The notes: a model not told the origin generated them from the sequence alone. 64,000 nucleotides of DNA from Candidatus Moraniibacteriota bacterium (GCA_903859375.1 CAIOMK010000030.1:5238-69237); one strand, 5' to 3'; counted from the first letter of the stretch, positions 9,247 through 55,741 are shown. Numbers and translations are program-made.

Positions 9247-9257
9247 CCCGCTTCGCC

Positions 9258-20192: not shown

Positions 20193-20217
20193 ATGACCGT
20201 TGAAAATGATGTCGTGA

Positions 20218-36791: not shown

Positions 36792-38405
36792 TCATTTCCG
36801 GATTAGTTGCTCGATGGAAAATCTTCCATAGATGCCAAAGTCTGGGGCGCTGTATGTTTCAGCGACCGATTTCGTGAGTTTTCCCTTGCTCTTCGCATTT
36901 CCGATGAGGACGATCGGTTCGCTTCCGGTCAACTGCTTTTTTTTGGACAACGGCTTGAGGGCGACACCCTTTTGTGCCGTGAAATACTCGATCGATTTCA
37001 GATATTTGAAGATATAGGTCTGCTTGCCTTTCAGAAGCACCGTCTCGCCGGACTGGAAATGGCTTGTAATGTATTCCGCTATGCCCTCGACTTCCCCAAG
37101 GGTGATTTCGGTCGAGGTCGATCCACTGACCAGAGTCTTCCCGGAATGATCGAGGAAGGCCGTCCATACGGCCATACTATTCGTACACAGGACGATTGCG
37201 AGTATCGAGAGCGTCGCTATGAGCATCTGCTTCCGATATGTACCCGCGAATACGGAAAGTGCCTCTATCCACAATCCGAGCAGTATGAACGGGACGAACA
37301 TCGACGCCAGATAAAACCGCAAGGAGATCTCATTGGCAAGCGGTATGAACAGAATGAAATTTATCAGGGCATACATGCCGGTCAGCTGGAGAAAAAGCTT
37401 CACCTGTCCGTCCGTCGATTTTCTGATTGCGCGTATCCACAGCCACGCGCCACCGACTGAAAACAAGACGGAAAGGAATAGTCCCACCAGAAACGGCAAC
37501 TTTCCCGACAGGCCTTTCGCCTTTTGATAAGTCGAGATGACCATGTCGGTCCCACATTCGTCATCGTTGCCGATTCCGGAAATGATGAATGCGTCGGCCT
37601 GTGCCTGACATACGGCATCGGTCGCCAGATCTCCGAGAAGGGTCTTCCCGTTCGCCGTCTTCGTCGTCGTGGCTCCGAAGAATGCCTTTACGTTCGCACC
37701 GTTCGTCTGTGCCAGATCGATGACCTGTCCGATATTGAGCGCGAACGCCACGGCAAAGACGATCGCCGCCGGACGCCACAATGAAGGAGTCTTTCTGCCG
37801 ATGAACATGAAAAAGAGTAGCGCGGTTATCGGCATGACAACCAGAAGTACGGTGTGGAGCTGTACGCCGATGCCGAGCGCCACGCCGGCGACCAGAGCCC
37901 ACCGCAACTTCTTCACGGTCTTCGCGTCCGCAATCGCGAGCAGCGCGTAGAGGAACAGTATCGAATACAACGGCGCCGAATTCGGATTCCATGCGAAGCG
38001 AGCATACTTTATCGCGAAAACGCTCACACTTAGGCCGGCGGTCAGCAGGAGTGCCGTACGAGCCTGAAACGCCCTACGCATCAATAGAAACAGGAGCGGG
38101 ATGGTCAGTATGGACGCGAACAGGTCCGGATAGGCCATCTTGTCAGGGCTGTTTCCGAACACTTTCGCGGAAACGATCTGCAGATAATAAAATGCACCAC
38201 CGAGCTTGAACGTCGTGCCTCCTGCCTTCGGACCGAGCAACGGCCATGCCACATTGCCATCAACCACATGACTCACCAATGACGCGTCACGGGACTGATC
38301 CGCGTTGAACCGGAGCCAATCATGGAACTGATAGGTCCTGAGGAATATCCCGACCGATATGATGCCGAACAGGATGAGTGCGACTGTATTGATTCTTATC
38401 TTCAT
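36792..38405 (-). CDS. GT-C fold glycosyltransferase, ArnT/PMT-like (GT39/GT83-type), paralog A
   Basis: 537 aa, about 11-13 TM helices. N-terminal signature FLRTYQFHDWLRFNADQSRDA in the first extracytoplasmic loop. Divergent C-terminal soluble domain. Confidence 0.7.
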   Translation of the reverse strand: MKIRINTVALILFGIISVGIFLRTYQFHDWLRFNADQSRDASLVSHVVDGNVAWPLLGPKAGGTTFKLGGAFYYLQIVSAKVFGNSPDKMAYPDLFASILTIPLLFLLMRRAFQARTALLLTAGLSVSVFAIKYARFAWNPNSAPLYSILFLYALLAIADAKTVKKLRWALVAGVALGIGVQLHTVLLVVMPITALLFFMFIGRKTPSLWRPAAIVFAVAFALNIGQVIDLAQTNGANVKAFFGATTTKTANGKTLLGDLATDAVCQAQADAFIISGIGNDDECGTDMVISTYQKAKGLSGKLPFLVGLFLSVLFSVGGAWLWIRAIRKSTDGQVKLFLQLTGMYALINFILFIPLANEISLRFYLASMFVPFILLGLWIEALSVFAGTYRKQMLIATLSILAIVLCTNSMAVWTAFLDHSGKTLVSGSTSTEITLGEVEGIAEYITSHFQSGETVLLKGKQTYIFKYLKSIEYFTAQKGVALKPLSKKKQLTGSEPIVLIGNAKSKGKLTKSVAETYSAPDFGIYGRFSIEQLIRK

Positions 38406-38414
38406 ATGTTTTCA

Positions 38415-40073
38415 TTATCGGGCACTATTCGCCATAACCGTATATACGTATGTTTTCTGACCTATTTTCTCATACTCCGTATTATTTTCCGAATCCAATT
38501 CATTGTTCACGTAAAATACGGGGGCACCGGAACGCGAAAACGTCCCGATATCCGTATCATCCACCCATATGAGGTTTTTTCCTTGTTCCGCAATCAGATA
38601 GGACAACGGCTGAAATGAATAATCCATGATTTTGTAATCCCCTCCCAGGTAGATGTCTGTCTGTCCGCCAGAATGGTCAATCAGATATTTCACTATCGGT
38701 TCGATCTCGCCCAAGACGACCGAATGCGAATAGATACGTTTCTGAGCCTGCAGTTCTTCGATGATGGACGAGTATGCCTTGGCATTCGACGCCAGTAAAA
38801 TCAAGAAAACGAGAGAGACAATCGCCCACCCCCATTTTTTATGGAGCCCGATCGCATATTCGGTCAGGAAACCGAGAAACATGAACGGCACGAAAAATGC
38901 GAAGCTGAAATATCTGAGTTCAAGCTTCTCTCCGACGATAGGCAACATGATCAACAGTGACAATCCGAGATATGAAACGACGAACCTGATCCACATTCGT
39001 TTATCACGGTCTTTCTCCCGCAGGAAGCGGTATGCGAGCATCACGTACCCGAATATCGAGAATGCGAGTCCGGCGAACAGCGATGGCATGAATATCCGAC
39101 TCTTGAAATCTTTCAACGTCCTTCCGAATAACAAGGAGTCATAATAGTATGCACAGCTGTCCTGTCCGAATGACGAAATCATATACGAGTTCGCTTCGAT
39201 ATGACAGCCGATATCGTTTATCGGTCCATATCCGCGATTGACAGACGCTTGCCCATCGACCGCCTCGCTCTGTGCAAAATAGTTCAGGAATATTCCCATA
39301 TTAGCGAAACCCGTCTCCGCCTCACTCCGTATCTGTCCGATGTTCAACGCTGCCGCAATGACGCACACGACGAGCAATCGTTTCCATACGCCTCTTTGCC
39401 GGACCAACATATGAACGGATACGAGCAGAAAGAACGATGAGAACAATATGAGCAGTATGACATGCAGCTGGATTCCCACACCGAGTGCCGTCCCCAGAAG
39501 GACAACCCATCGCCATCGAGCCTGTTCACCCTTGATTTTGAATTCATACAGGGAAAGCAGAAACAACAGGACAAAGAACGGTATGAGGTTCGAATTCCAT
39601 GCGAAACGCGAAAAGCGGACAGCGAAGAATGAGACGGCATACAGGCCCGTCAGAGCAAGTGATACGCTGTCATCAAAGAGCTTCTTAAAAAAGAAAAATA
39701 GGAGCGGGATGGACAGGATACCGAAAAAAACATCAGGATACGCCATAGCCTCGGCTTTCATACCGAATATTTTCGCCGAAAGTATCTGGAAATAATAATA
39801 TATCGGGCCCACTTTGAAATGCGTTCCGTTGTCGGTCGAATAGTTTCCCATCGCCGGCCCGAGGAGCGGCCACACCGCACCGTTCTCGACGACGCCTTGA
39901 ACCAGGCTCGCATCTCGGGACTGATCGCCCTTGAACTCGAGCCAGTCGTGGAAATGGTATGTGCGCAGGAAGAGTCCGACTGCCAATATCGAAAACAATG
40001 CCGTCAGAAGAGCAACTTTTTTTGATATCCGCAGGCCATGTATAACGTATTCGTTCATAGTTGTGGGTATCAT
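38415..40073 (-). CDS. GT-C ArnT/PMT-like glycosyltransferase, paralog B
   Basis: 552 aa. FLRTYHFHDWLEFKGDQSRDASLV signature. Lies 9 nt from paralog A. Confidence 0.7.
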   Translation of the reverse strand: MIPTTMNEYVIHGLRISKKVALLTALFSILAVGLFLRTYHFHDWLEFKGDQSRDASLVQGVVENGAVWPLLGPAMGNYSTDNGTHFKVGPIYYYFQILSAKIFGMKAEAMAYPDVFFGILSIPLLFFFFKKLFDDSVSLALTGLYAVSFFAVRFSRFAWNSNLIPFFVLLFLLSLYEFKIKGEQARWRWVVLLGTALGVGIQLHVILLILFSSFFLLVSVHMLVRQRGVWKRLLVVCVIAAALNIGQIRSEAETGFANMGIFLNYFAQSEAVDGQASVNRGYGPINDIGCHIEANSYMISSFGQDSCAYYYDSLLFGRTLKDFKSRIFMPSLFAGLAFSIFGYVMLAYRFLREKDRDKRMWIRFVVSYLGLSLLIMLPIVGEKLELRYFSFAFFVPFMFLGFLTEYAIGLHKKWGWAIVSLVFLILLASNAKAYSSIIEELQAQKRIYSHSVVLGEIEPIVKYLIDHSGGQTDIYLGGDYKIMDYSFQPLSYLIAEQGKNLIWVDDTDIGTFSRSGAPVFYVNNELDSENNTEYEKIGQKTYVYTVMANSAR

Positions 40074-40076
40074 TTC

Positions 40077-41729
40077 CTATTCTTGTTTCACTGTCTGATA
40101 TATATACAGGCTTTCACCACTCCAGCGATTCAGAACGTCCTTCTGATCTGTCGTTTTTGCACAGCCCATAAAGAACGTCCGGGCATCCTCCGGAACATTA
40201 CCATACGAATCATTCGCCCTCATCACTGTAACTCCCCGTTTATCCGCCAAATATATTACCGAATTGAGTGCAGACGACAACCGCCTGTCTTTGGACACAT
40301 ACACGCTTTCCCTGTCCGAATGGGCGGAAATAAAATTCACGAGAGGCTCGATTTCACCAAGCGTCGTCGCGCCGGAACAGGTTGCGTTCTGCGCCGAAAG
40401 TACCGCGGACTTTCCTCCGACGACGGTCAGATTGAAGAAGGCAATCAATATGAACAAAATGACGACAAACACAATCGCATTCACACGGTTCCAACTCTCG
40501 AATATTGATTTTACAAGCAATCCGAACAAGACATACGGCACAAAAAAGATGAAACTGAAATATCTCAGGTCGGCGATGGAACCGTCACTCAAAGGGTACA
40601 TGACGATGAACCCGAGTCCGCAATATAAAGCGAACAATCGGAGGAAATATGACTTTCTTTCTGTGTTTTCTTTCCAGACATTCCGAGCCAACAAGACATA
40701 TCCGGCAGTGGACAAAACGAGACCGAGGAGCAGAAGAGCAGCATCGCTCGCACTATGAGGATTCCTTACGTGGATATCACTGAAGTCTCCTGAAAGAATT
40801 TTGGCATAATCATGGGTGCAGTTGCTGAGCCCGAACGACGATCCATATGATGACAGATACAGGAAATTCGCCTCGATATGACAGCTCACGTCGTTTCCCA
40901 GCTTGTTCAGGATACCTCCACTGGCAGGATTTATCGAGGCGTCTGTGTTGGAAAAAAATCCAAAGAAGGCTTTGGTATTGCCGAAATCCGTCATCGACTC
41001 GTTCACTATCTGACTCCCGTTCAATAACAAGAATATCGAAAGGACAATCGCCCATTCTTTCCATATGACAGGGTCCTTCCTCATCGAAAAGAAAAAGACG
41101 AAAAAAACCACACCTGAGAAAAGGATCATCGTTATGGCATGCAGTTGGAAACCAACCCCCCATGCGATTCCGAGCAATATCGCCCACAACCACGGACGTT
41201 TCTCTTTCTCCCCTATGAATTTCAGGAGGGAATACAGGAAGAGCAGGACAAAAAACGGGATCGGGTTGCTGCTCCATGCGAATCGTGAATAACTGATGAG
41301 ATATGCCGATATCGAATAGAGGCCCGTAAGACCCAATGATAGGTTCCTATCGAAATACATCCTCATGAAGAGAAAGAATAGAGGGAGTGAAAGTATGGAG
41401 AAGAACACGTCCGGATATGCCAACGTATCCGGATAATTCCCAAACACTTTTGCCGATACGATCTGGAAATAATAATAGATTGGTCCCACATGGAAGGACT
41501 CTGCCTCAGTGGCTCCCGAATGGCTCAAAAAAGGTCCGAGGAGAGGCCATGAGGATTCTCCGGAGATGACTTGGTCTACACGGATCGCATCCCTACTCTG
41601 ATCGTCTCTGAATTGCAGCCAATCGTGAAAATTGTAGGTACGAAGAAAAACACCGACTGCCATGATGGCGAGCAGAATCCATATATGCCTCGAAACAGGC
41701 CACATCTTCCTCCACGAAAATGGCGTCAT
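40077..41729 (-). CDS. GT-C ArnT/PMT-like glycosyltransferase, paralog C
   Basis: 550 aa. FLRTYNFHDWLQFRDDQSRDAIRV signature. 3-nt gap to paralog B. Confidence 0.7.
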   Translation of the reverse strand: MTPFSWRKMWPVSRHIWILLAIMAVGVFLRTYNFHDWLQFRDDQSRDAIRVDQVISGESSWPLLGPFLSHSGATEAESFHVGPIYYYFQIVSAKVFGNYPDTLAYPDVFFSILSLPLFFLFMRMYFDRNLSLGLTGLYSISAYLISYSRFAWSSNPIPFFVLLFLYSLLKFIGEKEKRPWLWAILLGIAWGVGFQLHAITMILFSGVVFFVFFFSMRKDPVIWKEWAIVLSIFLLLNGSQIVNESMTDFGNTKAFFGFFSNTDASINPASGGILNKLGNDVSCHIEANFLYLSSYGSSFGLSNCTHDYAKILSGDFSDIHVRNPHSASDAALLLLGLVLSTAGYVLLARNVWKENTERKSYFLRLFALYCGLGFIVMYPLSDGSIADLRYFSFIFFVPYVLFGLLVKSIFESWNRVNAIVFVVILFILIAFFNLTVVGGKSAVLSAQNATCSGATTLGEIEPLVNFISAHSDRESVYVSKDRRLSSALNSVIYLADKRGVTVMRANDSYGNVPEDARTFFMGCAKTTDQKDVLNRWSGESLYIYQTVKQE

Positions 41730-41741
41730 ATCTTCGAACGT

Positions 41742-43361
41742 TTATCGGATCCGATATATACCCACCTGCCCGACGTCCCGATGGTCGATGAAGGTCATCC
41801 CGCCGATTTCCCGATTACCGCCATCCCCGAGTATCGACCCCACATAGAATGCAGAAGCACCGGAAGGGACGCCTCCGATATCGATGCCTCGTTTTAGGGT
41901 CAACCCCTTTTCAGCAGACAGATATATGAGTGTCTTGTTGTATGGGGAATAGTATTTGGTTCCGCCGAACAGGTATGCCGTCTGTCCGGAAGAATTTTCG
42001 ACGATAAAATCGGCAAGCAGTTGAGCCGCATCCAAAACGAGATATCCGGAATCCGCGCGCGTCTTGTCCGCCAACGAAAGAGCCTCGGTACGGATGGACG
42101 AGAGGTTTGTTCCGATAAGGATGGCGAACAGTGCAATCGTTATCGCAAGATATTTCCTCGGATAGTTCCGCTTCAGGTATCCGATCAACAGGCCGATGAA
42201 GACGAACGGCAGAAACGTCATGTGGATGAAATAGCGCATCGGTGCCAGATCGATGATCGGCAACATGACCAGAAATGACATCACGGAATACAGGAGGACG
42301 ACTCCGGTGAAGTATTTTTTCGTCTTTTCCTGTTCCTTCCACGTCATATATACGAGCATCCCATACCCGAAGACCGAAAAACAGAGGCTCGCGAATATTC
42401 CAAGCCGGGCGGATTTACTGCTCGGCAGACGCAATGCGGAATTCGGTTTCATATTTCTCGCCTTCGAGTAGAGAAAATCGCAGTTCTCCTTGTTGCCGAG
42501 AGACGAGGAAATAAGAGAATTCGCCTGCGCCGTACACGCGATATCGAGCACCGTATTCCTCAGGAACCGGCTTCCCCCGCTATTGTCAGACTTGTCCGAA
42601 AACGATGCGAGGAAGACTTTCGTATTCGCGTAATCGGTTCGCTGTTCATGAATAATCTGACCGGTATTCGCCGCGACGACGAGTACGGCTACCACCGCCC
42701 ACCGACTCCATGTCTTCCGACTTTTTATCATCAGGAACAGGAACGACACTCCGGCTGTTCCCAGCATGGTCAGGAGCAGTATCGCGTGCAATTGGGAGCC
42801 TATCCCGATTGAAATACCCAAAAGGATGATCCATATCCATCGAGTCTTTTCTTTCGCAAGAAGAAACTCCCAAAGTGAAATCAGGAACAGTATCACGAAG
42901 AACGGAATCGGGTTCGGATTCCATGCGAACCGTGAATACTCGATCGCATAATACGATATGCCGTACAGTCCCGTCAGGGACAATGCGACTTTTTTATCGA
43001 AATACCGCTTCAGGAACACGTAGAGGAGCGGGATGGACAGAAGATTGAAGAACAGGTCCGGATACGCCAGCTTGTCGGGACCGATTCCGAATATCTTTAC
43101 CGAAACGATCTGAAAATAATAGTATGCCGGACCGAGGAGGAATCCGGTATTCCCCATCGACGATCCGAGCAGCGGCCAAGGGGCGTTGTTTTTCACCACG
43201 TTCTCCACGAGGAATGCGTCCCGAGCCTGATCGTTCCCGAAATGAAGCCAATCGTGGAAATTATATGTCCGAAAAAAGACGGCGAGCACGAAGAGAGCTA
43301 CGATCATAAAATAAAACGTCCGTTCCGACCGGATAATCCGGCAGATTCGTTCCTTCATCAT
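41742..43361 (-). CDS. GT-C ArnT/PMT-like glycosyltransferase, paralog D
   Basis: 539 aa. FFRTYNFHDWLHFGNDQARDAFLV signature. Confidence 0.7.
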   Translation of the reverse strand: MMKERICRIIRSERTFYFMIVALFVLAVFFRTYNFHDWLHFGNDQARDAFLVENVVKNNAPWPLLGSSMGNTGFLLGPAYYYFQIVSVKIFGIGPDKLAYPDLFFNLLSIPLLYVFLKRYFDKKVALSLTGLYGISYYAIEYSRFAWNPNPIPFFVILFLISLWEFLLAKEKTRWIWIILLGISIGIGSQLHAILLLTMLGTAGVSFLFLMIKSRKTWSRWAVVAVLVVAANTGQIIHEQRTDYANTKVFLASFSDKSDNSGGSRFLRNTVLDIACTAQANSLISSSLGNKENCDFLYSKARNMKPNSALRLPSSKSARLGIFASLCFSVFGYGMLVYMTWKEQEKTKKYFTGVVLLYSVMSFLVMLPIIDLAPMRYFIHMTFLPFVFIGLLIGYLKRNYPRKYLAITIALFAILIGTNLSSIRTEALSLADKTRADSGYLVLDAAQLLADFIVENSSGQTAYLFGGTKYYSPYNKTLIYLSAEKGLTLKRGIDIGGVPSGASAFYVGSILGDGGNREIGGMTFIDHRDVGQVGIYRIR

Positions 43362-45016
43362 TTTTTCATTAATGTATATATCATGATCCTCCCGAACCGT
43401 TCATATCCGAGAATGGCGTTGCCATCTACCTTGTCCCCGATCATATACGGCCTCGATTTGATACCGTCTATGTAGAAAAATCGTGTCCCACTTACGAAGG
43501 GTTCCTTGTTTCCCGGACGTACCACAACAGACCCCGATCGTTTGGCGATATAATCGAACGGTTTGAGAAATCGTTTCAGATACATCGTCGATCCATCGAT
43601 ATGGACGGTCCCAAGAGAATCGGTATTCGCGATGAGAAAGGCGACCATCGATTCGGCTTCGCCCAATATGCTGTCGTCGACGGAACTTGCGCTTTTGTCC
43701 ACATACGGCCGTGCCGAAACTATCAGCACAGACACATTCACAAAGAGGAACATCACCATGACAAGTACGTCGGCGGCACCCAGTCGTATCGCTTTCATTT
43801 TTTTCCCAGCGCATGTGTCCAACCAGAGTCCGAGCAAAATGAACGGGATGAAAAACAGGATACTGAAATAACGGACTTCTATCTGGGAAGCCACCGGAAC
43901 GAGCACGATGAACGAAATGAAATTATAGAAAAGTATCAATCCGAGGAACGTGCGTTTCTCTTCGCGCGGTTCCTTTCTCAGGGCTCGTATGGCGAGAACG
44001 TATCCGCCGATTGAGAACAACAATGTCGCAATCATCTCCGCAATGAACAAAACGCCATTTACTGTGGCTCCCGCCGGAACCAACCGGTTTATTTTGAAAC
44101 TCTTGGCAATATTGAACATTCCTCCGCATTCCTGTACGTTTATCGCGGAAAATATGATATGAGTGTTCGCCTGCATCTGACACGATGTGATGAGCGATAT
44201 GTTCCGCAGCAACGTATTCCCCTGCACGCTTGATTCACTGCCGGCACCCCTAAATAACTGACTGCTATTGGCGCCACCGGTACGTAGCTCGTACGAGATC
44301 TGGCCGTAATTCATCAGGAGAAAGAAAGAGAGCACCACTACGAAAATCTGCCACGTAAGATTTTTTTTCACGAGCAGGTACACGCACATTCCGACGGCTG
44401 TCAGAGGCATGATCAAAAACAGCAGGGTATGCAATTGGATGCCGACGCCCATACCGACACCGACCGATATGGCCGAACGATATTTTCCCGCTTTTCCATT
44501 GTCCGCAAGGCCGAGGAGTCCGTAGAGGAACAGGAGCGTGAAAAAAGGGATAGTATTAGGATTTGATGCGAACCGCGAAATCTGAATCGCGAAAAGCGAC
44601 ACACTCAGCAATGCGCTCAGGAAAAGTGACATTCGTACGGAAAAATATTTCCGCAGGAAGAGAAACAGCATCGGAATCGAGAGAATCGAAAAAATCAAAT
44701 CAAAATAGGCGATCTTGTCAGGAGCGTTTCCGAAAACGAGGGCCGACACATATTCGGCCTGATAGTAGAGCGGGCCGAGATAGAACTGTGTATTCCCCGC
44801 CTGCGGACCGAGCGCTGGAAGAGGCGCCTTGCCCGTGATGGCGTCGCTGATATAAGTCGCATCACGCGCCTCGTCGGGGCTGAATCGGAGCCAGTCATGA
44901 AACTGGTATGTACGGCAGAATACGCCCACGATCATGATGGCGAGCAATACCCAGAAATATTTCGGAACCGCCCTGATCCGCGAAACGATAGCTTTATTCG
45001 TCATAGGAAACAACAC
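43358..45016 (-). CDS. GT-C ArnT/PMT-like glycosyltransferase, paralog E
   Basis: 552 aa. FCRTYQFHDWLRFSPDEARDATYI signature. 4-nt overlap with paralog D. Confidence 0.7.
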   Translation of the reverse strand: MLFPMTNKAIVSRIRAVPKYFWVLLAIMIVGVFCRTYQFHDWLRFSPDEARDATYISDAITGKAPLPALGPQAGNTQFYLGPLYYQAEYVSALVFGNAPDKIAYFDLIFSILSIPMLFLFLRKYFSVRMSLFLSALLSVSLFAIQISRFASNPNTIPFFTLLFLYGLLGLADNGKAGKYRSAISVGVGMGVGIQLHTLLFLIMPLTAVGMCVYLLVKKNLTWQIFVVVLSFFLLMNYGQISYELRTGGANSSQLFRGAGSESSVQGNTLLRNISLITSCQMQANTHIIFSAINVQECGGMFNIAKSFKINRLVPAGATVNGVLFIAEMIATLLFSIGGYVLAIRALRKEPREEKRTFLGLILFYNFISFIVLVPVASQIEVRYFSILFFIPFILLGLWLDTCAGKKMKAIRLGAADVLVMVMFLFVNVSVLIVSARPYVDKSASSVDDSILGEAESMVAFLIANTDSLGTVHIDGSTMYLKRFLKPFDYIAKRSGSVVVRPGNKEPFVSGTRFFYIDGIKSRPYMIGDKVDGNAILGYERFGRIMIYTLMKK

Positions 45017-45017
45017 T

Positions 45018-47165
45018 TTATTTGGACTCTATCGTTATCGAATCGACCAGGGCCGCCTGGTGCTTTTTCTTCGCCGTCGAGATCTGCACCGCTTTTCCCG
45101 CATCATCACGTATCGAGAATGGGACATCGTTTTCTCCGGGCTTAAGAGTACTCGTGACGACATACTCCCGCAGATCGCCGTCAAGGGTACCCGCGGACTG
45201 CACATCGTTTTGGATCGAGAATTTCAGACCGGACGAAGCCCCTTTCAACGAAACATGTATCGTCACCGTCTTGGCGACCGTATCCATATTGAAGATTTTG
45301 AGCCCCGCGCCGTCGCCGATCTCGCGGTATTGCTTTTTGTCATCACCTGCGAACTGAGTCGAGATCTGATCGTTCTTCAATCCGAGCGAGAAATAATATC
45401 CGGTCGGAACCTTCTGTGCGATTTCGTAGGCGATCAGAGAGTCGTCCTCATACCGGTTTGCATAAGCGATATATTTCTCGATGAACGACTGTGCGAGCCG
45501 TTGCATGGCCTCGTCGGCATACGTCTTGCTGATGGTGACATATCTCACATGATGATAATTCAGGATGTCGGTCGCCTGCGACCAATCAAACCCCTTCAGG
45601 ATATCGGTCATGTCCTTCTTGTCCGGATCGTTTCCTTTTGGAATCGTATACAGCAGTTGCTTGATGATCGGCGTCTCCTGTTGCATGTCGAACTGACCGC
45701 TGATCTTGCGTGCAAGTGGCATGCCGTTGAGCACTGGCTTCTTATGCACGGTATCGGTCAGCATCGCGTAACTGGCGAACTCGTAATTCGTCGAACCGGG
45801 TATCTCGATGAGTGAGTACGACTCGGTATCTTTCGCGATTCGGTCGTAAAACGGCGAATAGGCAACCATCATGGTCGACATCGGCGCCACCCAGAACTCG
45901 AACAGGATCACCACTGAAAACAAGGCGGTGTACACGTTTTTTTTCAGCGTATATTTTGTCTGCAGGAACGCCGACGCATACGCGGTCAGCATTGCCACTC
46001 CCGCCATCGAGATGACGAAGATGCGTCCCGTCGTACGGATATTCTCATAGAAAGGGACGAACTTATAGATCAGATAGTACGGCAGATACACGGTGAATGA
46101 CCCGAGAGAAAAGGATGCTCCGAGCGCGAGCACGTAAAATACCACCGTCACGGCACCCCACAATATCAGATCCTGGCGATATCCCTTATCCTTGAATCCG
46201 ACGCCCTTGTCGCGTACGAGGAAGTACAGGAAATACGCGATTACTGCCAGGACGGCGAATCCGACGAAGTACGATCCCCTGTTGGAATCGCCGAATACAT
46301 GGTCTTGGATCTTCGCACTGAGACCGCCCCATATCGCATGGAAGACCGGAGGCATGATCGGGTCGAGTATCTTGATGGAATATTTGTTCGCCGCGTTCAT
46401 GCCCGCGGACAAGAAGTTGTTGTCCGATGTGGCGACTTTCAACATATCCCCGAACATGCCGAATATCACTATCGTGAGCAGGCACGCCGAACCGACGACG
46501 TAGAACCAGAATTTTCGATTGCGGACCGTTTCACGGTTCACATATATCCGATATGCCGCGAAAAAGACGACATAGATCAGTGTGAATGCGAGAAATTGAT
46601 GCTCGCTCATCGCGATAAGAAAGGCGAACAGTCCGGTCGTCGCGAAATGCCTGAATCGCAGATCATCGAAAAATTTGGCCAGGAACAGCATCAGGAAAGG
46701 CAACCATTGCTGTTGCATTGTCCCGAGATGCACCGCGACCGATTGGTAATAATGAAACGGGGCGAACGCGAACACCAACCCTGCCACGAACGACGCACGG
46801 TCGTTTTTCGTGTAGTGTCTCGCCAGAAGAAACATGCCCACTCCGCTGAGAACGTACGTCAGGAGAAATATCACATTGTACGCCGCTATCTTTCCCATCA
46901 GCAGGCCCAGGAGGACATATGGTGTGAACGTGTTCAGACTTTTCAGGATGGACAGGGAGCCGTGGATGAAATCCGACGATCGGACCTGCACTATCCTGGT
47001 ATCGATACTGGAAATGACCTGATAGACGTCTCCCCCACCCTTCGGGATCTCATTTCCCATCCTCAATACCAACGGGAACGTGAACAACAGGGCTATCACG
47101 AAATACAGCGCGGAAGCGGTAAGGACGGGATGCTTTTCCGCCAATTTCAGTATCGTTCTTTTCAT
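45018..47165 (-). CDS. large polytopic membrane protein, possibly YfhO-like (GT-C-related)
   Basis: Start at the ATG at 47165 (MKRTILKLAEKH). About 715 aa, multi-TM N-terminal two-thirds and soluble C-terminus. Gene-level confidence is higher than the family guess (about 0.3). Confidence 0.55.
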   Translation of the reverse strand: MKRTILKLAEKHPVLTASALYFVIALLFTFPLVLRMGNEIPKGGGDVYQVISSIDTRIVQVRSSDFIHGSLSILKSLNTFTPYVLLGLLMGKIAAYNVIFLLTYVLSGVGMFLLARHYTKNDRASFVAGLVFAFAPFHYYQSVAVHLGTMQQQWLPFLMLFLAKFFDDLRFRHFATTGLFAFLIAMSEHQFLAFTLIYVVFFAAYRIYVNRETVRNRKFWFYVVGSACLLTIVIFGMFGDMLKVATSDNNFLSAGMNAANKYSIKILDPIMPPVFHAIWGGLSAKIQDHVFGDSNRGSYFVGFAVLAVIAYFLYFLVRDKGVGFKDKGYRQDLILWGAVTVVFYVLALGASFSLGSFTVYLPYYLIYKFVPFYENIRTTGRIFVISMAGVAMLTAYASAFLQTKYTLKKNVYTALFSVVILFEFWVAPMSTMMVAYSPFYDRIAKDTESYSLIEIPGSTNYEFASYAMLTDTVHKKPVLNGMPLARKISGQFDMQQETPIIKQLLYTIPKGNDPDKKDMTDILKGFDWSQATDILNYHHVRYVTISKTYADEAMQRLAQSFIEKYIAYANRYEDDSLIAYEIAQKVPTGYYFSLGLKNDQISTQFAGDDKKQYREIGDGAGLKIFNMDTVAKTVTIHVSLKGASSGLKFSIQNDVQSAGTLDGDLREYVVTSTLKPGENDVPFSIRDDAGKAVQISTAKKKHQAALVDSITIESK

Positions 47166-47176
47166 GTGAGATATGG

Positions 47177-48982
47177 TTATTCGGCACCGTCGATTCGGAT
47201 AGCGTTCGCATTGTCGTCCGTGATACCGAACACATCCTTCCAAAAAACTCGGTCGGTGTTGGTCTTCGCCTTGTTGAATTTATATTCCTCCACGATACGG
47301 TTCGGGAAGTTCAATTCATACACCATCAGCTGTCCGAACTGTTTCGAATCGATGGCGGTGATGTCGGTCCCGAATTTCTTGGTCACGGGAGCGAGTCCGT
47401 TCTTGGCCGGCGTGACCGCAAAGAACTGCGCGTCGGCATCGGTCTTGTTCGTCATCGTTGCCGATCTCAGGCTCGCATCATGCTTCGAGTAGAACAGGAA
47501 TTCGATCGGCCTCACATGCTCCGGCTTCACATAATAGTACAATGTCGACCCTTCCTTGTGGCGCGCGTACATCCAATCGGTCACTCCTTTCAGCTGTCCC
47601 AGGGTAACCCCGTCCTTCGCTTTCAGGATCAAGGTCCGTTTCACAGTGAAATCGCTCTTCTGAGACTTCGCCTGCTCTTTGAACCATGCGTACGTCCCAT
47701 AGGTGTTCCATCCCACAATACCCGCTGTGAGGAGGAGTGCGATCGCGATGGCATGCGTGCGTTTCAGCTTCTCATCCAGATATTCGAAGACGAGTCCGAG
47801 CAGTATGAACGGGACCGCGAACACCACGATATAGAACCGCGGCCGGAGCTGGAACGCGACCGGCACCGTCAGTATCGTAAACACCGCCACCCAGGCGATG
47901 ATCAGGACGAGGAAGTCCTGTTGCGTGTCCGTGAGCGTTTTTTTCCTCAGATTGCGGAATATGAGGACGGCGCCGGCAAGAAATATGAGCGCCGTGACGG
48001 AAAGCGCCGGCAATTCAGCGGTCATCGAACCGCCATAGCACTGGGATGTCGTCACGAGGCAGTAATACTTGGCATTCTCCGTCACCGTCTTCACGAGCTT
48101 GTCGGCAAACGGCTTTTTCTCAGCCTTCGATCCGAGCGCCTCGATGAAATTCTTGGTGTTCTGTCCGTTCTTATAGTATTCGCTGATGAACACCGGCGTA
48201 TAGAAGAACGAGAACACGAGCAGTGCGATTCCGGAATACAGCGCGATCTTTTTGAGCGTTTCTTTCTTCACGCATGCGACAATCGACTCCTTCTTCCAGA
48301 GTCGGAAATGCGTGATAAACAACAGTCCGGAAATACCAACGAGACTGAAAAATCCGAAAAAGTGCAGCTGCGAGCCGATCGTAATACCGGTCGCCCACAT
48401 GATCAGCCACCATTTCCTACGTCTCCCGTCCGGCTCGTTCAGGAATCGGAGCAAGCCGTAGAAACTGAGCAACAAGAAGAATTGGAGCGAATTCGGATTC
48501 CACGCGAATCGCGAATACTGGATGATGATGAACGAGAACGCATACATCGCCGTTATGAGCAGAGCGTTCCGTTTGGAGAAGTACAGACCGGCGAGGAGGA
48601 ATACCAGCGGTATCGCGAGTATGGAAAACAGTAGATCAGGGTAGGCGTAGACATACGGCTCCGTCGAATTGAACAACACTCCGGACGCGTATTGGAAATA
48701 ATAGAATATCGGCCCGAGGCGCAGAAACCCGTGTTTGAGAGCCACAGCACCGGCGCGAGCACCGAGCAAAGGCAAATATTGCGGCCCGTTCAAGACGGCA
48801 TTGCTGATAAGGAGCGCGTCCCGGCTTTGGTCCATCTTGAAATAGAGCCAGTCGTCGAATGTGTAGGTGCGCACGAATATCGCCGCGAGGAGGATGGCCA
48901 GGAGCGCCAACCACACCGCATTTTTGCTGATGAATTTTTTCAGGTTCTGCATATGTTCGTTACTACTCTTCGAGACTGTCAT
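47177..48982 (-). CDS. GT-C ArnT/PMT-like glycosyltransferase, paralog G
   Basis: 601 aa. FVRTYTFDDWLYFKMDQSRDALLI signature. Confidence 0.7.
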   Translation of the reverse strand: MTVSKSSNEHMQNLKKFISKNAVWLALLAILLAAIFVRTYTFDDWLYFKMDQSRDALLISNAVLNGPQYLPLLGARAGAVALKHGFLRLGPIFYYFQYASGVLFNSTEPYVYAYPDLLFSILAIPLVFLLAGLYFSKRNALLITAMYAFSFIIIQYSRFAWNPNSLQFFLLLSFYGLLRFLNEPDGRRRKWWLIMWATGITIGSQLHFFGFFSLVGISGLLFITHFRLWKKESIVACVKKETLKKIALYSGIALLVFSFFYTPVFISEYYKNGQNTKNFIEALGSKAEKKPFADKLVKTVTENAKYYCLVTTSQCYGGSMTAELPALSVTALIFLAGAVLIFRNLRKKTLTDTQQDFLVLIIAWVAVFTILTVPVAFQLRPRFYIVVFAVPFILLGLVFEYLDEKLKRTHAIAIALLLTAGIVGWNTYGTYAWFKEQAKSQKSDFTVKRTLILKAKDGVTLGQLKGVTDWMYARHKEGSTLYYYVKPEHVRPIEFLFYSKHDASLRSATMTNKTDADAQFFAVTPAKNGLAPVTKKFGTDITAIDSKQFGQLMVYELNFPNRIVEEYKFNKAKTNTDRVFWKDVFGITDDNANAIRIDGAE

Positions 48983-49200
48983 AATAATGACGTATTATCA
49001 CAGTTTTTGGCTTATTTGAGAGGACTTTTTATTTTTTTTTCGGTATATGCCCGTACCGACTAAAAACGCCTCTTCCAAACGGAATTATACCTGTAAACAA
49101 CCCCCTTGCGCAAGCCACCGAAGCCGGTCCGAAACTCCATAAAACGTTATTTTTATGCTACTATACGAATATTATATTCTAATCGACGAGACCAAACCGT

Positions 49201-51045
49201 ATGTGTCGTATACTTCAAAAATACACCGTTCATTTCATCATCTTCATAGTTCTCGCGCTCAACCTCTTTCTCAGCCTTTCCCGACTCGGTACCTATTCCG
49301 CGGTCGACGAACCGTACTGGACCTACGGTCGCACGTCCAAGTTCTGGACCGCCGTCGATCAACATAAGTGGAAATCGACCAATATCAACGACAAGCCGGG
49401 TATCACGGTGGCCCTCTTGTCAGGTTTCGGTCTGCTGAAATACGACCCGATGCAGTACGAGCATATCAGAGGCGAGATCAAAACAGATGCGCAACGGGCG
49501 GATATCGACTCGATCAATTTCTTTTTCCGACTACCGATTTTCCTCTTCTGCACCTTCATGCTTCCGCTCTTTTATTTTTTCCTCCGTAAACTGTTCAGCA
49601 AGACGACGGCGCTCATCGGGTTCGTCTTCATCGGTCTCTCGCCGATCCTACTCGGTATCTCACTCATCATCAATCCGGACTCGCTTCTCTGGATATTCCT
49701 CCCGCTTTCCCTCCTCGCCTACCTCACCTACCAAAAGAAGCAAAAAACGGGTTATCTGATCGCGACCAGCGTCCTCCTCGGACTTTCGCTTTTGACGAAG
49801 TATGTCGCGAACATACTCTATATCTTCTTTTTCATCCTCCCGTTCCTCGAATATGTCTTCGCGGAAAAAAAGCCAGAGCTGAAAGGATATCTGATTAAAT
49901 CATCCAAAGACTATCTCGTCATCGCCACCGTCTCGATGGCGACCTACTATCTCCTGTACCCCGCCGCATGGGCACATCTGAACGTGCTTCTCGAGGGGAC
50001 GTTCCTCAGCAAAGCCTTCGTGAAAGTCTGGCCCGTCTTCGTCGGCATCATCGCCCTGATGGCCGCCGACATATATCTGTTCAAGAACCGTCTCACGCAA
50101 CCGCTCCTCGACGTCCTGTCGCGGTACCGGACCGTCCTCTCGACGGCGCTCATATCCGTCTTCATTATTCTCATCGCCGTCACGATGGCAGACACCTATC
50201 TGGGAATGAAACCATTCGACCTCGAGGCGATACTCGCTTCTCCGAAAGGCATAGGCATAAGCGGGAGCGGACTTCCGGCCGCCATCGCCGGAGCATTCCT
50301 TGCGAACACATACAGTCTCATTTTCGGAATGGATCCGATCGTCTTCATTTTCCTCATACTCGGACTGTTCTCCGTACCGTTTTCGAAACAGACGTATTCA
50401 TGGGAGAAGAAAACCACGATCTATTTCGTCTTGTTCATCGTCCTCTATTATTCCGCTTCCACGTTCAACGACGTGATCGCGACGATCCGGTACCAGATAA
50501 TCCTCTATCCGCTCGCGTTCATCATCGCCGCCATCGGCGCCACACGGCTTCTGTCATGTGAACGGGTGCGCCGGCACGTCCCATCAATCGCCGCGACGGG
50601 AGCGCTCCTCCTTATCCTCGCGATTCCGTTGTTTCAGGTAAAACCGTTCTATTTCACGTACGCCTCGCCACTTCTTCCCGAACAGTATCTCCTCAACACC
50701 AAGGACATGGGAGACGGGAGCTTCGAGGCCGCCTCCATGCTCAACGCCCTTCCGAACGCACGCGATCTCGTCGTCTGGTCAGACAAGGGAGCGGTCTGTA
50801 CCGAATTCATCGGCACCTGCAATATCGGCTTCAGCAAGAAAGATATAACCGGCAAGAGCTTCGATTATTTCGTCATCTCGACGGGGCGCATCAGCCGATC
50901 GATGAAACTTTCGGGTGCCGTGAACGACATCATCGACTTCAGGAAGCTGTACGATGAGAATACACCATACGAGGCCAGTATCGTCGTCGGTGGCCGTCCG
51001 GACAATTTCGTGAGGGTTATCAAAGCGTCGGCAATCGCCAAATGA
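49201..51045 (+). CDS. GT-C ArnT/PMT-like glycosyltransferase with canonical DE-type loop motif, paralog H
   Basis: 614 aa. AVDEPYWTYGR in the first loop is the classical DE motif of the PMT/ArnT family (DEPYY-like). Multi-TM. Confidence 0.65.
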   Translation: MCRILQKYTVHFIIFIVLALNLFLSLSRLGTYSAVDEPYWTYGRTSKFWTAVDQHKWKSTNINDKPGITVALLSGFGLLKYDPMQYEHIRGEIKTDAQRADIDSINFFFRLPIFLFCTFMLPLFYFFLRKLFSKTTALIGFVFIGLSPILLGISLIINPDSLLWIFLPLSLLAYLTYQKKQKTGYLIATSVLLGLSLLTKYVANILYIFFFILPFLEYVFAEKKPELKGYLIKSSKDYLVIATVSMATYYLLYPAAWAHLNVLLEGTFLSKAFVKVWPVFVGIIALMAADIYLFKNRLTQPLLDVLSRYRTVLSTALISVFIILIAVTMADTYLGMKPFDLEAILASPKGIGISGSGLPAAIAGAFLANTYSLIFGMDPIVFIFLILGLFSVPFSKQTYSWEKKTTIYFVLFIVLYYSASTFNDVIATIRYQIILYPLAFIIAAIGATRLLSCERVRRHVPSIAATGALLLILAIPLFQVKPFYFTYASPLLPEQYLLNTKDMGDGSFEAASMLNALPNARDLVVWSDKGAVCTEFIGTCNIGFSKKDITGKSFDYFVISTGRISRSMKLSGAVNDIIDFRKLYDENTPYEASIVVGGRPDNFVRVIKASAIAK

Positions 51046-52787
51046 CACAACCTATGCCCATCACATCGTTACAAGAGCGACTGCTCCGATATTTCAACGG
51101 GAACCGAAGAGAAATCATCGCCCTCATACTGATACTCTGCATCGGTATTTTCTTGCGCACCTACCACTTTTCAGATTGGCTCCATTTCGAAATGGATCAG
51201 GCCATCGATTACGATCTCGTCTCACCCGCGGTCGACTTCGGTCCCGGTCATCTCCCTCTCCTTGGGCCCAATGTCGGCGGAGGATTGCTTCGTCTCGGCC
51301 CCGCATTCTATTACATGGAATATGTGAGTGCGGTCATCTTCGGCAATACGCCGACCGGACATGCCATGCAGGTATTGATCCTTTCGATACTCTCGCTCCC
51401 GCTGTTCTACATATATTGCCGACGGTTTTTCTCCACAATCGAGTCTCTCGGATTGTTGGCTGTCTTTTCGACCTCAGTCTACCTCGTGATGTATTCGCGT
51501 TTTTCCTGGAGTCCGAATGTCCTGCCGTTCCTGTTCCTCGCATCGTTCTATGCGCTTCTCCGGTCCGTATCCCCCGGCGAGCGCCATCCGGCGAGATGGT
51601 TCCTCACGGCAGTCGTAGCGGTCACCATCACTTCACAGATACACTTCAATTCATTCTTCGTTACCCCGCTTATCGCAGTGGCATTCACGGCGATCAAACG
51701 GCCGCGTTTTCCCCTCAAGGTCTGGCTCGCGGGCCTCGCGATCATCCTCACCCTGTATTCCCCGGTCATTCTCAATGACATCCACAACAACAGGGAGAAT
51801 CTGCATTATCTCCGTGAAAAATTCGACAAGACGAAGCCGGGCAGTCTCGTCATGACGGACACGTTGATCCAGACAGTCGAATATGACGCCTACGAATTCT
51901 TTTTCATCACGACCGGAACCGATCTGATCAACGGCATCAAACTGAAAGACTACGGGTTCTCATGCAAGACGTGCGGCGAAAACATGGGACTGAAAATATT
52001 CTCACTCGCGCTCTTCCTCACCGGCCTGGTGTCTATCGCAATCATGGTATGGAAAGAGCGTGACGCGAAGCGGAAGGACTTCCACATCCTGACGCTCCTC
52101 TGGTGCCTGGTGTCCTTTTATCTCATATATTCCATCGCCGATGGCTACCGGATGTATCCGAGATTTTTTCTTCTGCTCGCGCCGCTTGCGGTCATCCTCT
52201 ACGGGTATATCCTGCATCTCATCCAACCGAAACACGGACGAGTCCGATTCTGGATATTTATCTCAATCATCGTAACACTCGTCACGCTCAATATCCACGC
52301 GATCCTGCCCATATTCGACCAGCTCCGGAACGAATCGTTGTCCAAAGGCATGGAAATCGAGGTCGGTGACATCTTCCCGAATACGAACCGCATCACACTC
52401 GCACAACAGACCGCCATCGTCGACTATATCGTGTCGAAATACCGGGACAACGAATACCCGACGTATCTACAGTCGGAATCGGAGTACGAACCGGCTTTCT
52501 GGGCGCTTCTGGAAAGGCACGGTATCCGATACCGTGACGAGATCCGCGACAGCTCGCTCTATTCCGAAGGAAATTACTTCGATATCCGATATGCGGATGA
52601 TACATTCGATACGGATTCAAAGTACACCGTTCTCGAAACGAAACCGTTCGGTACACTGACAGTGAGGTTCTTCAAACCACTTGATGCGGTCGTCGTGGGA
52701 ACCCGTCAATCCGATTCCGAATACAAACAATCCGAAGTGGTCACCGTCATCTCGAAACTACTCAGATGGGACGAGCTGTTTAGATAA
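51042..52787 (+). CDS. GT-C ArnT/PMT-like glycosyltransferase, paralog I
   Basis: 581 aa. FLRTYHFSDWLHFEMDQAIDYDLV signature. ATGA overlap with paralog H. Confidence 0.7.
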   Translation: MTQPMPITSLQERLLRYFNGNRREIIALILILCIGIFLRTYHFSDWLHFEMDQAIDYDLVSPAVDFGPGHLPLLGPNVGGGLLRLGPAFYYMEYVSAVIFGNTPTGHAMQVLILSILSLPLFYIYCRRFFSTIESLGLLAVFSTSVYLVMYSRFSWSPNVLPFLFLASFYALLRSVSPGERHPARWFLTAVVAVTITSQIHFNSFFVTPLIAVAFTAIKRPRFPLKVWLAGLAIILTLYSPVILNDIHNNRENLHYLREKFDKTKPGSLVMTDTLIQTVEYDAYEFFFITTGTDLINGIKLKDYGFSCKTCGENMGLKIFSLALFLTGLVSIAIMVWKERDAKRKDFHILTLLWCLVSFYLIYSIADGYRMYPRFFLLLAPLAVILYGYILHLIQPKHGRVRFWIFISIIVTLVTLNIHAILPIFDQLRNESLSKGMEIEVGDIFPNTNRITLAQQTAIVDYIVSKYRDNEYPTYLQSESEYEPAFWALLERHGIRYRDEIRDSSLYSEGNYFDIRYADDTFDTDSKYTVLETKPFGTLTVRFFKPLDAVVVGTRQSDSEYKQSEVVTVISKLLRWDELFR

Positions 52788-54517: not shown

Positions 54518-55741
54518 ATGAAAAGTCTTATTCCGTACAAAAGACAGGCGGCCTTTGTCGCACTCATCGTTTTCGCCTTCGTGGTCTGGATCGCCGTCAT
54601 CGTGCTCGGTGACAAGAGTTATGTCGACGAAGGGACGCACGCACGGCAGATCCAACGGTTTTTCAAGGGCAACTATTCGATGCTGGACGACCTGACCAAT
54701 ATCCCCGGTTATCACGTGACCGTGGCAACCATCGAAAAAATAGTTCATCCGAACGAGAAGTATCCCCCGCTTGCGGAATCCAGATCGGTCAGTCTCGCCT
54801 TGTCAGCCACCTCTCTGCTGTTGTTTTATCTCATCTCCAAAAAAATCGGCATAGGCGATCCGAAAATGCGGACCCTTCAATACGCATTTTTTCCGATAAC
54901 ATTTCTCTATTTCCCCCTCGTCTACACGGACATATTCTCACTCGCGTTGCTACTTGCCGCGTTCCTTCCGATCCTCTACCGCAAATACACGCTTTCCGCG
55001 GTCATATCGCTTCTCTGTCTTGCGGTCAGACAGGATGCCATCGTCTGGGTCGGTTTTTTCTGGCTGTTCGCCTTTGTCTCGGAATACGGATTCGTTCTCT
55101 CCATTCGGAATATTTCCCGCCATTTCAGGAACACGATCGGCTACGTGGCGGTATTGATCCTCTTTCTGTCCTTTGTCCTGTTCAACGGTGGCATAGCGAT
55201 CGGTGACAAGGAAAGTCACGTGGTCGGACTGTACTCGGGTGGCATATATTTCTTTTTGGCAACGGTCGGATTCCTGTTCCTTCCCACCCTCGTCACCTTT
55301 TTCAAAACCGCCGATTGGAACCGACTGAAAGGATATCTCACATACATATTGCCTATCGGTACCGTCCTAGGCTTGTCGTTCGTTCTATTTCCTCCGGCGT
55401 TACACAAGTACAATCTCGACGCCCACTTCATACGCAACCTCGTGTTGGAGCAGGCATATACACGATATTGGTGGCTTTATGCCGTTTCGATCGTCCTCGG
55501 TTTTTCGGCGATATACGTCATGAAAATTCAGGGGCGCTTCATCGCGCTTCTCCCGATCATCGTCCTCAGCCTGATACCGTCATTCCTGATCGAACAGCGA
55601 TATTTCATCGTTCCGCTCGTTTTTCTCCTGCTGTTCAGGACCGAATCCACAAAGCATACCGAGCGGGCCCTCACCGTCTTTTTTCTCTCCCTGTCGCTCT
55701 CACTGGTATACATGTTGCTTCGGATGGACTTGTTCTTCTAG
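54518..55741 (+). CDS. DIE2/ALG10-family-like GT-C glycosyltransferase (lipid-linked alpha-1,2-glucosyltransferase homolog)
   Basis: 407 aa, about 10-12 TM helices. First-loop motif YVDEGTHARQIQRFFKGNYS...LTNIPGYH parallels the eukaryotic Alg10 Y-x-DE-x-F-H-x-x-Q-A-Q...G...TTPPGLY block. Confidence 0.5.
   Translation: MKSLIPYKRQAAFVALIVFAFVVWIAVIVLGDKSYVDEGTHARQIQRFFKGNYSMLDDLTNIPGYHVTVATIEKIVHPNEKYPPLAESRSVSLALSATSLLLFYLISKKIGIGDPKMRTLQYAFFPITFLYFPLVYTDIFSLALLLAAFLPILYRKYTLSAVISLLCLAVRQDAIVWVGFFWLFAFVSEYGFVLSIRNISRHFRNTIGYVAVLILFLSFVLFNGGIAIGDKESHVVGLYSGGIYFFLATVGFLFLPTLVTFFKTADWNRLKGYLTYILPIGTVLGLSFVLFPPALHKYNLDAHFIRNLVLEQAYTRYWWLYAVSIVLGFSAIYVMKIQGRFIALLPIIVLSLIPSFLIEQRYFIVPLVFLLLFRTESTKHTERALTVFFLSLSLSLVYMLLRMDLFF

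Follow-up and report, generated by a model that had tools for sequence, protein, structure and literature searches.

Three-component glycosylation systems consist of a GT-A undecaprenyl-phosphate-sugar synthase, a flippase, and a GT-C glycosyltransferase (PMC11754754, PMC7389260), and different GT-Cs glycosylate different positions of one wall polysaccharide (PMC11754754). Known systems, such as SccN/SccP with SccM/SccQ of Streptococcus mutans and CsbB/GtcA/YfhO, have one to three GT-Cs. Other described GT-C enzymes include the lipid A 4-amino-4-deoxy-L-arabinose (L-Ara4N) transferase ArnT (GT83; PDB 5EZM/5F15), the protein O-mannosyltransferases (Pmt, GT39), PgfM1 and PgfM2 of S. mutans, and the mycobacterial EmbA/B/C, AftA-D, and PimE set. 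Bacteria of the Candidate Phyla Radiation (CPR; Patescibacteria) are generally described as cell-attached organisms with genomes of about 1 Mb. Little work has been done on their surfaces, and no paper linking these bacteria with GT39, GT-C, or ArnT-type enzymes was present in the literature that we searched. Here, we report a contiguous array of nine predicted GT-C glycosyltransferase genes (positions 36792 to 52787) in a 64,000-nucleotide stretch of a Candidatus Moraniibacteriota bacterium (GCA_903859375.1, CAIOMK010000030.1:5238-69237; below, the window), together with a tenth such gene close by.

Array and gene family

An open reading frame (ORF) listing showed that positions 36792-52787 are tiled almost gaplessly by nine long intact ORFs, named A to I. 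The minus strand holds seven genes (A-E, F, and G), one fewer than the eight counted in a preliminary description made from the sequence alone, and the plus strand holds H and I. Spacings in order from A to I are 9, 3, 12, −4, 1, 11, 218, and −4 nt (the F-G figure uses the ATG start of F), in agreement with the earlier account of gaps of 1 to 12 nt, 4-nt overlaps, and a divergent H/I pair. That account missed the tenth GT-C gene (J) and the donor-supply genes. The best homologs of the array proteins were from Candidatus Moranbacteria/Moraniibacteriota metagenome-assembled genomes, where the NCBI name is "glycosyltransferase family 39 protein." The array features, with predicted assignments, are as follows (aa, amino acids; CBM, carbohydrate-binding module).

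36792-38405, minus strand: paralog A, 537 aa, DQxRD-family GT-C; PMT_2 2.4e-10; BLASTP identity of 30-37% to B-E, G, and I; motif FLRTYQFHDWLRFNADQSRDA
38415-40073, minus strand: paralog B, 552 aa, DQxRD-family GT-C, putative variable cassette; PMT_2 6.5e-11
40077-41729, minus strand: paralog C, 550 aa, DQxRD-family GT-C, putative variable cassette; PMT_2 9.3e-08
41742-43361, minus strand: paralog D, 539 aa, DQxRD-family GT-C, the member modelled
43358-45016, minus strand: paralog E, 552 aa, DQxRD-family GT-C with D-E replacing D-Q; BLASTP 1e-65 to 1e-110 versus A-D
45018-47165, minus strand: F, 715 aa, predicted GT-C fold of a distant type, ending in a CBM-like beta-sandwich
47177-48982, minus strand: paralog G, 601 aa, DQxRD-family GT-C, first gene of the minus-strand operon; PMT 9.6e-11, PMT_2 2.2e-06
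48983-49200: divergent intergenic spacer, 218 nt, separating the G...A and H-I-GH28-J gene strings
49201-51045, plus strand: H, 614 aa, PMT_2-type GT-C with a DE motif, of another subfamily; PMT_2 1.6e-11, PMT 7.6e-07
51042-52787, plus strand: paralog I, 581 aa, DQxRD-family GT-C (DQAIDY); BLASTP 1e-24 to 1e-55 versus the other six paralogs
54518-55741, plus strand: J, 407 aa, DIE2/ALG10-family GT-C, the tenth GT-C; PF04922 3.1e-37, 129.2 bits (cut-off, 27)

In all-against-all BLASTP, A-E, G, and I were mutually 27-40% identical over near-full length (E values of 1e-24 to 1e-113). By this comparison they are true paralogs, and they constitute a lineage-specific subfamily related to ArnT and PMT. 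Nine paralogs had been proposed; the nine ORFs are intact, seven are paralogous at the BLASTP level, and the other two, H and F, are distant GT-Cs that join the rest only at the superfamily or fold level (H versus the seven, E > 0.03 throughout; F unrelated to them by BLASTP). Exactly the same seven proteins carry the N-terminal signature F-x-R-T-Y-x-F-x-D-W-L-x-F-x-x-D-Q/E-x-R/I-D, as the preliminary description had stated; E deviates by D-E, and in I the residues R and A are replaced by I and Y. Mean pairwise identity is highest in the N-terminal 255 residues (39%), followed by the second transmembrane (TM) block (25%), the large loop (20%), and the C-terminal soluble domain (19%). The C-terminal domains, previously called mutually divergent, are the most divergent region; they are nevertheless still alignable and therefore homologous.

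Searches with profile hidden Markov models (HMMs) agreed with the proposed GT-C placement. PMT_2 (PF13231; gathering cut-off, 26.1 bits) was exceeded in six of the nine proteins (A, 41.3; B, 43.1; C, 32.9; D, 38.9; G, 28.4; and H, 45.1 bits), was just missed by E (24.9 bits) and I (23.4 bits), and was not reached by F; PMT (PF02366) exceeded its cut-off in G (42.1 bits) and H. The NCBIfam ArnT and Agl23 models were matched by paralogs weakly and below thresholds, and a sequence search of the PDB with D alone or with a 34-sequence family profile gave no match even at E ≤ 10. At the fold level, the proteins belong to the GT-C superfamily, with a GT-C helical core in a polytopic N-terminal module and an extracytoplasmic soluble domain. 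Membership of the eukaryote-type protein O-mannosyltransferases (GT39 PMT) was rejected: none of the nine proteins (A-I) had a Pfam match to the MIR domain at E ≤ 0.01, and about 90% of family members have D-Q at the motif position.

At the DNA level, the array contains motif stretches of 25-87 nt that recur every 1.6-1.7 kb and are 60-78% identical; because of these periodic repeats and the gene order kept in other genomes (see below), the array is a non-chance pattern. Promoter and terminator scans, including the 218-nt G/H spacer, found nothing above shuffled expectation. The 64-kb window contained no tRNA genes and no Rfam match at gathering thresholds.

First-loop motif

Invariant positions of the family alignment (D numbering) are R31, W38, F41, D44, and D48. 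Among motif-matched family ORFs from 71 loci, D44 was present in 167/167 and D48 in 166/167, and position 45 was mostly Q (151 ORFs), with E in 8; D44 and D48 are both retained throughout the seven window paralogs. The family profile was aligned with hhalign to a profile of 47 diverse ArnT homologs (gathered by representative-library search), giving a match that spans TM1 to about TM7 (Prob 90.6%, E = 1.3e-6, 223 columns) and pairs D44, Q45, R47, and D48 with D31, E32, R34, and Y35 of Escherichia coli ArnT, of which D31, E32, and R34 are invariant within the ArnT profile. The single E. coli ArnT sequence returned the same DQ-to-DE pairing at Prob of only 4%; significance came with the diverse ArnT profile. 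The PDETRY stretch of E. coli ArnT is the PDEGRY stretch of the solved Cupriavidus metallidurans ArnT, whose Asp we take to be the residue (D55) that Petrou et al. 2016 investigated. Because a basic N-terminus precedes TM1 and the predicted helix begins at residue 43, the motif is placed at the start of the first extracytoplasmic loop (EL1). The profile alignment thus supports the suggestion that the D-Q-x-R-D loop takes the position of the ArnT D-E-x-R motif, and by the same alignment the N-terminal block is more than an anchor. The outcomes that the preliminary description had named as refuting it (no significant GT-C HMM match, models without the GT-C fold, or an N-terminal block unrelated to catalysis) were each checked, and every check favored its interpretation.

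Where ArnT has K61 and D135, the aligned positions of the family are not conserved or are Asn, and the family is therefore a distinct subfamily and not a set of ArnT orthologs; orthology was rejected on this ground and on the best score to the ArnT equivalog NF009784 (19.9 bits, paralog A; cut-off, 567).

An acidic first-loop residue following TM1 was found in every group of GT-Cs in and beside the array: D44 in the family, D36/E37 in H, D46 in F (invariant), and VDEGTH in J, within the DIE2_ALG10 match. H carries AVDEPYW, as reported earlier, and D36, E37, W40, and R44 are invariant in 46 orthologs; the H family aligned with ArnT at Prob 95.5% (hhalign). Alignment of the DQxRD family with the H family gave Prob 93-96% overall; the EL1 region had near-zero confidence, with DEPYW set against HDWL, so this alignment was not used for motif mapping.

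F has 715 aa from its ATG, the length given in the preliminary description (741 aa in a TTG-extended version). The description of F as YfhO-like did not hold: F had no Pfam match, PF09586 (YfhO) was absent even at E ≤ 10, and none of the 31 F-family members matched it at E ≤ 0.01, so that membership of the YfhO family was rejected. Sporadic matches within those 31 members were to PMT_2, DUF6044, GT-C_AftD (in one homolog only, 5e-4), and PTPS_related. F homologs are "hypothetical proteins" confined to Moranbacteria, and the predicted model of F combines a GT-C fold with a C-terminal CBM-like beta-sandwich.

J, whose first-loop motif is YVDEGTH, is encoded directly after a GH28 gene, and J relatives were found near arrays in 9/69 loci. 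DIE2/ALG10 is otherwise familiar as the eukaryotic dolichyl-phosphate-glucose glucosyltransferase of the endoplasmic reticulum.

Distribution and age

A scan of one genome per GTDB species identified 289 tblastn-confirmed relatives, nearly all in Moranbacteria or Parcubacteria assemblies. The comparative genomics proposed in the preliminary description showed the gene order to be conserved: all nine genes recur in order in a relative (L001, L002, and L008) at about 70% identity, followed on the I side by GH28 and on the A side by a MOP flippase, thymidylate kinase, and Wzy. Gene by gene, identity to the counterparts in this nearest relative was 77% (G), 72% (D), 68% (F), 68% (H), 67% (I), 65% (A), 64% (E), 52% (B), and 44% (C). 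A more distant genome (L003) had 10 family members by the family HMM and at least 12 consecutive PMT_2 genes; across 71 fetched loci, the family HMM counted a median of 3 and a maximum of 10 members within ±10 kb.

Orthologs of G (50-78% identical across Moranbacteria loci), I (40-67%), and H were clear throughout the lineage, and A-E-type members were about equidistant between distant genomes. Out of 231 family members, 227 were closer to a protein of another locus than to any neighbor in their own, and the best within-locus identity had a median of 36% and a maximum of 57%. The array paralogs are, by these protein comparisons, judged ancient and individually retained. Recent tandem duplication or gene conversion as the origin of the array was rejected, given within-locus identities of at most 57% (median best, 36%) and DNA repeats of only 60-78% over 25-87 nt. 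A single neighboring pair among the 231 exceeded 55% identity (L003, 14809-18035; 56.6%) and is the only candidate for a comparatively recent tandem duplication.

Two positions of the array differ in their conservation. B shares 52% identity with its syntenic counterpart in the nearest relative, is absent from L004, and is duplicated in L005; C is 44% identical to the syntenic gene in L002, absent from L004, and has its best relative (about 50%) in more distant genomes. GC content at third codon positions was lowest of the array in B (0.586) and C (0.561), versus 0.64-0.73 for most neighbors, and overall GC content was lowest there too. B and C look like variable cassettes, in a pattern resembling cassette replacement.

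Within 10 kb of 34 large arrays, H was found in 29/34, a MOP flippase in 23/34, GH28 in 13/34, a flippase-like gene in 12/34, GT2 in 12/34, F in 10/34, and J in 5/34; these counts are lower bounds because the locus flanks are incomplete.

Glycan island

Gene content around the array identifies the 64-kb window as a putative glycan-biosynthesis island. Its main features outside the array, with predicted assignments, are as follows (EPS, exopolysaccharide).

52807-54486, plus strand: GH28 glycoside hydrolase, signal-anchored, alpha-D-galacturonidase-like; Glyco_hydro_28 1.2e-28; NCBIfam BT4155-type 3e-98, sub-cut-off
55738-56685, minus strand: flippase-like membrane protein (LPG_synthase_TM/TIGR00374)
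56682-58601, minus strand: AsnB-type glutamine amidotransferase, EPS-associated type; Asn_synthase 4e-99; TIGR03108 3.5e-181, sub-cut-off
58672-59616, minus strand: GT2 polyprenyl-phosphate glycosyltransferase, PgfS/ArnC-like; Glycos_transf_2 3.5e-26; PgfS 7.9e-64 and ArnC 4.3e-37, both under equivalog cut-offs
59722-60678, minus strand: second flippase-like membrane protein; LPG_synthase_TM 2.5e-34; TIGR00374 1.9e-17
61844-63169, minus strand: UDP-glucose 6-dehydrogenase, TuaD-like
63183-63992, minus strand: second ArnC/PgfS-like GT2, N-terminus toward the window end
34554-36020, plus strand: MOP-family flippase (Wzx/SpoVB/MurJ-like); Polysacc_synt 1.2e-26; SpoVB and MurJ matches
32380-33690, minus strand: Wzy_C membrane protein, O-antigen ligase/polymerase-type; PF04932 1.7e-17
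24122-25237, upstream of the array: GT4, one of several GT4 genes there
23167-24120, upstream of the array: AglJ/PpgS-like (ArnC- or AglJ-like) GT2
18612-20249, minus strand: second Wzy_C membrane protein
6804-7538: TagA/WecG-family transferase

A GT4 gene is also present on the downstream (J) side of the array, and a second UDP-sugar dehydrogenase is present on the upstream side. The GT2 at 58672-59616 has two C-terminal hydrophobic segments (residues 220-254 and 264-298), and two more ArnC- or AglJ-like GT2s are present in the window. None of the ORFs scanned matched the GtrA family; in place of such a protein, two flippase-like TIGR00374/LPG_synthase_TM proteins lie to either side of the GT2. 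The GH28 gene is located between I and J, encodes one N-terminal hydrophobic segment, and is syntenic beside I in L001, L003, and L013, distant Moranbacteria included; its start is probably ATG 52807 and not TTG 52681, which overlaps I.

Proposed function and alternatives

The GT2s, candidate flippases, and GT-Cs of the island match the published three-component scheme, and we therefore propose the ten GT-Cs as outer-face transferases with one distinct step each. On balance, we favor a three-component glycosylation system of the Gtr type in which they make up the outer-face arm, with a wall-associated polysaccharide as the most likely acceptor. ArnC/PgfS/AglJ-like GT2s would load monosaccharides onto polyprenyl phosphate at the cytoplasmic face, the two flippase-like proteins would carry the lipid-linked sugars across the membrane, and each GT-C would glycosylate an extracytoplasmic acceptor at its own position or through its own linkage. 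Use of lipid-phosphate-linked donors on that face is suggested by context, namely, the ArnC/PgfS-like GT2 and flippase-like genes in the island. The acceptor may be a wall-associated, probably uronic-acid-containing polysaccharide built by the cytoplasmic GT4, GT2, and TagA-like enzymes of the island with the MOP flippase and Wzy proteins; F could hold the glycan via its CBM-like domain, the signal-anchored GH28 could trim or remodel the product, and positions B and C could act as swappable cassettes that vary it between strains. As the paralogs are ancient and individually retained, they probably represent nonredundant steps of an assembly or branching line. A polysaccharide acceptor is favored because of the CBM-like domain of F, the GH28 conserved in synteny, and the presence of uronic-acid-related genes, none of which is proof.

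Compared with characterized Gtr-type systems, the island likewise has GT2s with C-terminal hydrophobic segments, candidate flippases, and GT-Cs together. It differs in having ten GT-Cs where known systems have one to three, in flippase candidates of the LPG_synthase_TM/TIGR00374 type instead of GtrA/GtcA, in the lack of a YfhO assignment for F by HMM, and in its CPR host.

Several points weigh against the Gtr-type proposal. Everything beyond fold and motif is drawn from gene neighborhood, and the equivalence of D44 with the ArnT Asp comes from profile alignment rather than three-dimensional superposition. Since ArnT K61 and D135 are unconserved, the active-site chemistry of the family may differ. 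Among NCBIfam models, the GT2 at 58672-59616 scores best against PgfS, which belongs to a protein O-glycosylation system, and the NCBI family name is GT39. The flippase-like proteins differ from the GtrA/GtcA type found in characterized three-component systems, and the MOP flippase, which matches SpoVB and MurJ models in addition to Wzx-type ones, may simply be a syntenic lipid II flippase. No UDP-glucuronic acid 4-epimerase was found in the 64-kb window, and the uronic-acid idea is therefore weak. Within ±10 kb, only 12-13/34 large loci showed linkage to GH28, GT2, and flippase-like genes, which is a lower bound.

An extension of the Gtr-type proposal is tentative: a complex surface polysaccharide might be assembled or heavily branched almost wholly outside the cell by a line of at least ten GT-Cs, as a convergent, nonactinobacterial counterpart of mycobacterial arabinogalactan and lipoarabinomannan synthesis, with the B and C cassettes exchanged between lineages and varying the glycan for host attachment or phage recognition. 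The preliminary likening of the array to the mycobacterial Emb/Aft set was apt. In both, many GT-Cs would serve one complex glycan and use polyprenyl-phosphate sugars (inferred on the array side), and AftA, AftB, AftD, PimE, and EmbA are among the structural matches of array proteins. F resembles AftD in that a GT-C module is joined to CBM-like beta-sandwich domain(s), and the reasoning from a CBM-like domain to a polysaccharide acceptor has also been published for AftD. Differences are that A-I lack Emb/Aft Pfam matches, that 7/10 array enzymes come from a single paralogous family, and that the array genes are in one contiguous run, mycobacterial Emb/Aft genes being more dispersed.

Protein O-glycosylation is a serious rival, one that we rate as rather unlikely. 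As Pmt- or Pgf-type enzymes, the GT-Cs would transfer polyprenyl-phosphate sugars to Ser/Thr of secreted or surface proteins (pilins, S-layer, or disordered tails), and the paralogs would differ in targets or extend an O-glycan stepwise, in a PgfS/PgfM1/PgfM2-like manner. In S. mutans, PgfS and two GT-Cs, PgfM1 and PgfM2, glycosylate adhesins and Ser/Thr-rich disordered regions (PMC12041528). The array family matches the PMT_2/PMT models and carries the "glycosyltransferase family 39" name, Pmt2 and Pmt4 are top structural matches, and PgfS is the closest curated model of the GT2 at 58672-59616 (7.9e-64), although its score of 216 bits is far under the equivalog cut-off of 500. No member has a MIR or other protein-substrate module, and the motif is DQ, not DE, in most members. 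The surroundings also speak for polysaccharide: F has a CBM-like beta-sandwich, a GH28 hydrolase is syntenic, and the island is rich in polysaccharide genes (two Wzy_C, TagA, GT4s, and UDP-sugar dehydrogenases). Copy number differs as well; to our knowledge, 7 to 12 paralogs far exceed any characterized bacterial O-mannosylation or Pgf system.

Lipid-anchored targets, modified in the manner of ArnT, Rgt, or YfhO, are improbable. The acceptor would be a glycolipid, a lipoteichoic-acid-like polymer, or lipid-linked wall precursors, and its modification would tune surface charge or antimicrobial-peptide resistance. Among characterized enzymes, only ArnT has an EL1 motif that could be aligned by profile comparison (D-Q-x-R on the invariant D-E-x-R), ArnT has a similar length (about 540-550 aa) and a C-terminal soluble alpha/beta domain, an ArnC-like GT2 is encoded near the array, A and other paralogs have weak matches to the ArnT and Agl23 NCBIfam models, and lipoteichoic acid is glycosylated by GT-Cs in three-component systems (PMC7389260). 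Against this, the family has Gln for Glu in about 90% of members, a best ArnT equivalog score of 19.9 bits (cut-off, 567), no conserved K61 or D135, and no sequence-level PDB match, and neither a lipid A pathway gene nor a lipoteichoic acid synthase gene was seen in the window. ArnT is a single gene, and a single lipid target leaves 7 to 12 anciently diverged, individually conserved paralogs unexplained.

We give equally little credence to the view that several paralogs are noncatalytic, as subunits of hetero-oligomeric GT-Cs (Pmt1-Pmt2, EmbA-EmbB) or as Agl23-like flippase-associated proteins, with fewer reactions than genes: weak matches to TIGR03663 ("flippase activity-associated protein Agl23") in B-E, G, and H, the solved Pmt1-Pmt2 and EmbA-EmbB hetero-complexes among the structural matches, and tight operon packing with 4-nt overlaps, which favors cotranslation and coassembly, are outweighed by the retention in all seven paralogs of D44, D48, and the invariant R31, W38, F41, N150, Q190, H192, and R376, by Agl23 scores of 21-29 bits (far under the cut-off of 126), and by the fact that hetero-oligomer subunits such as Pmt1/Pmt2 are themselves catalytic.

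Some of these elements are already known. The GT-C fold, the first-loop Asp, and the inferred donor logic have been described, the proteins are automatically annotated as GT39, and the enzymology is expected rather than surprising. As far as the literature searched shows, the D-Q-x-R-D subfamily is undescribed, as are the conserved arrays of 7 to 12 anciently diverged members, their pairing with H-type, CBM-bearing F-type, and ALG10-type GT-Cs, and their occurrence in a small-genome lineage. About 19 kb encode the ten putative outer-face glycosyltransferases, within an island of about 40 kb devoted to glycan synthesis. Conservation of this arrangement across Moranbacteria, with ancient and individually retained paralogs, implies an elaborate and strongly selected surface glycan. 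The D-Q-x-R-D family, the CBM-bearing F, the GT2 donor synthases, and the GH28 are concrete candidates for heterologous testing, and the natural series of 7 to 12 related GT-Cs, presumably differing in specificity, is useful for learning the determinants of acceptor and linkage in this fold.

Other features of the window

Two further envelope-related genes are present in the part of the window upstream of the array.

3431-4744, minus strand: C39-like peptidase-domain protein
8269-9357, minus strand: PGA_cap (CapA-like) protein

Directly downstream of the GT2 (23167-24120) and GT4 (24122-25237) genes, at 25286-27253 (plus strand), a gene encodes a polytopic membrane protein of 655 aa whose C-terminal part is soluble. 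This protein had no Pfam or NCBIfam match, and hhalign against four GT-C profiles was not significant; it could be a further unrecognized GT-C-like transferase.

RNA-repair-type genes are present within the island: an RtcB ligase (30459-32009, plus strand) is preceded by a small nucleotidyltransferase-domain protein (29722-30462, plus strand), and a LigT/2'-5' RNA ligase-like protein is encoded at 7592-8263 (minus strand).

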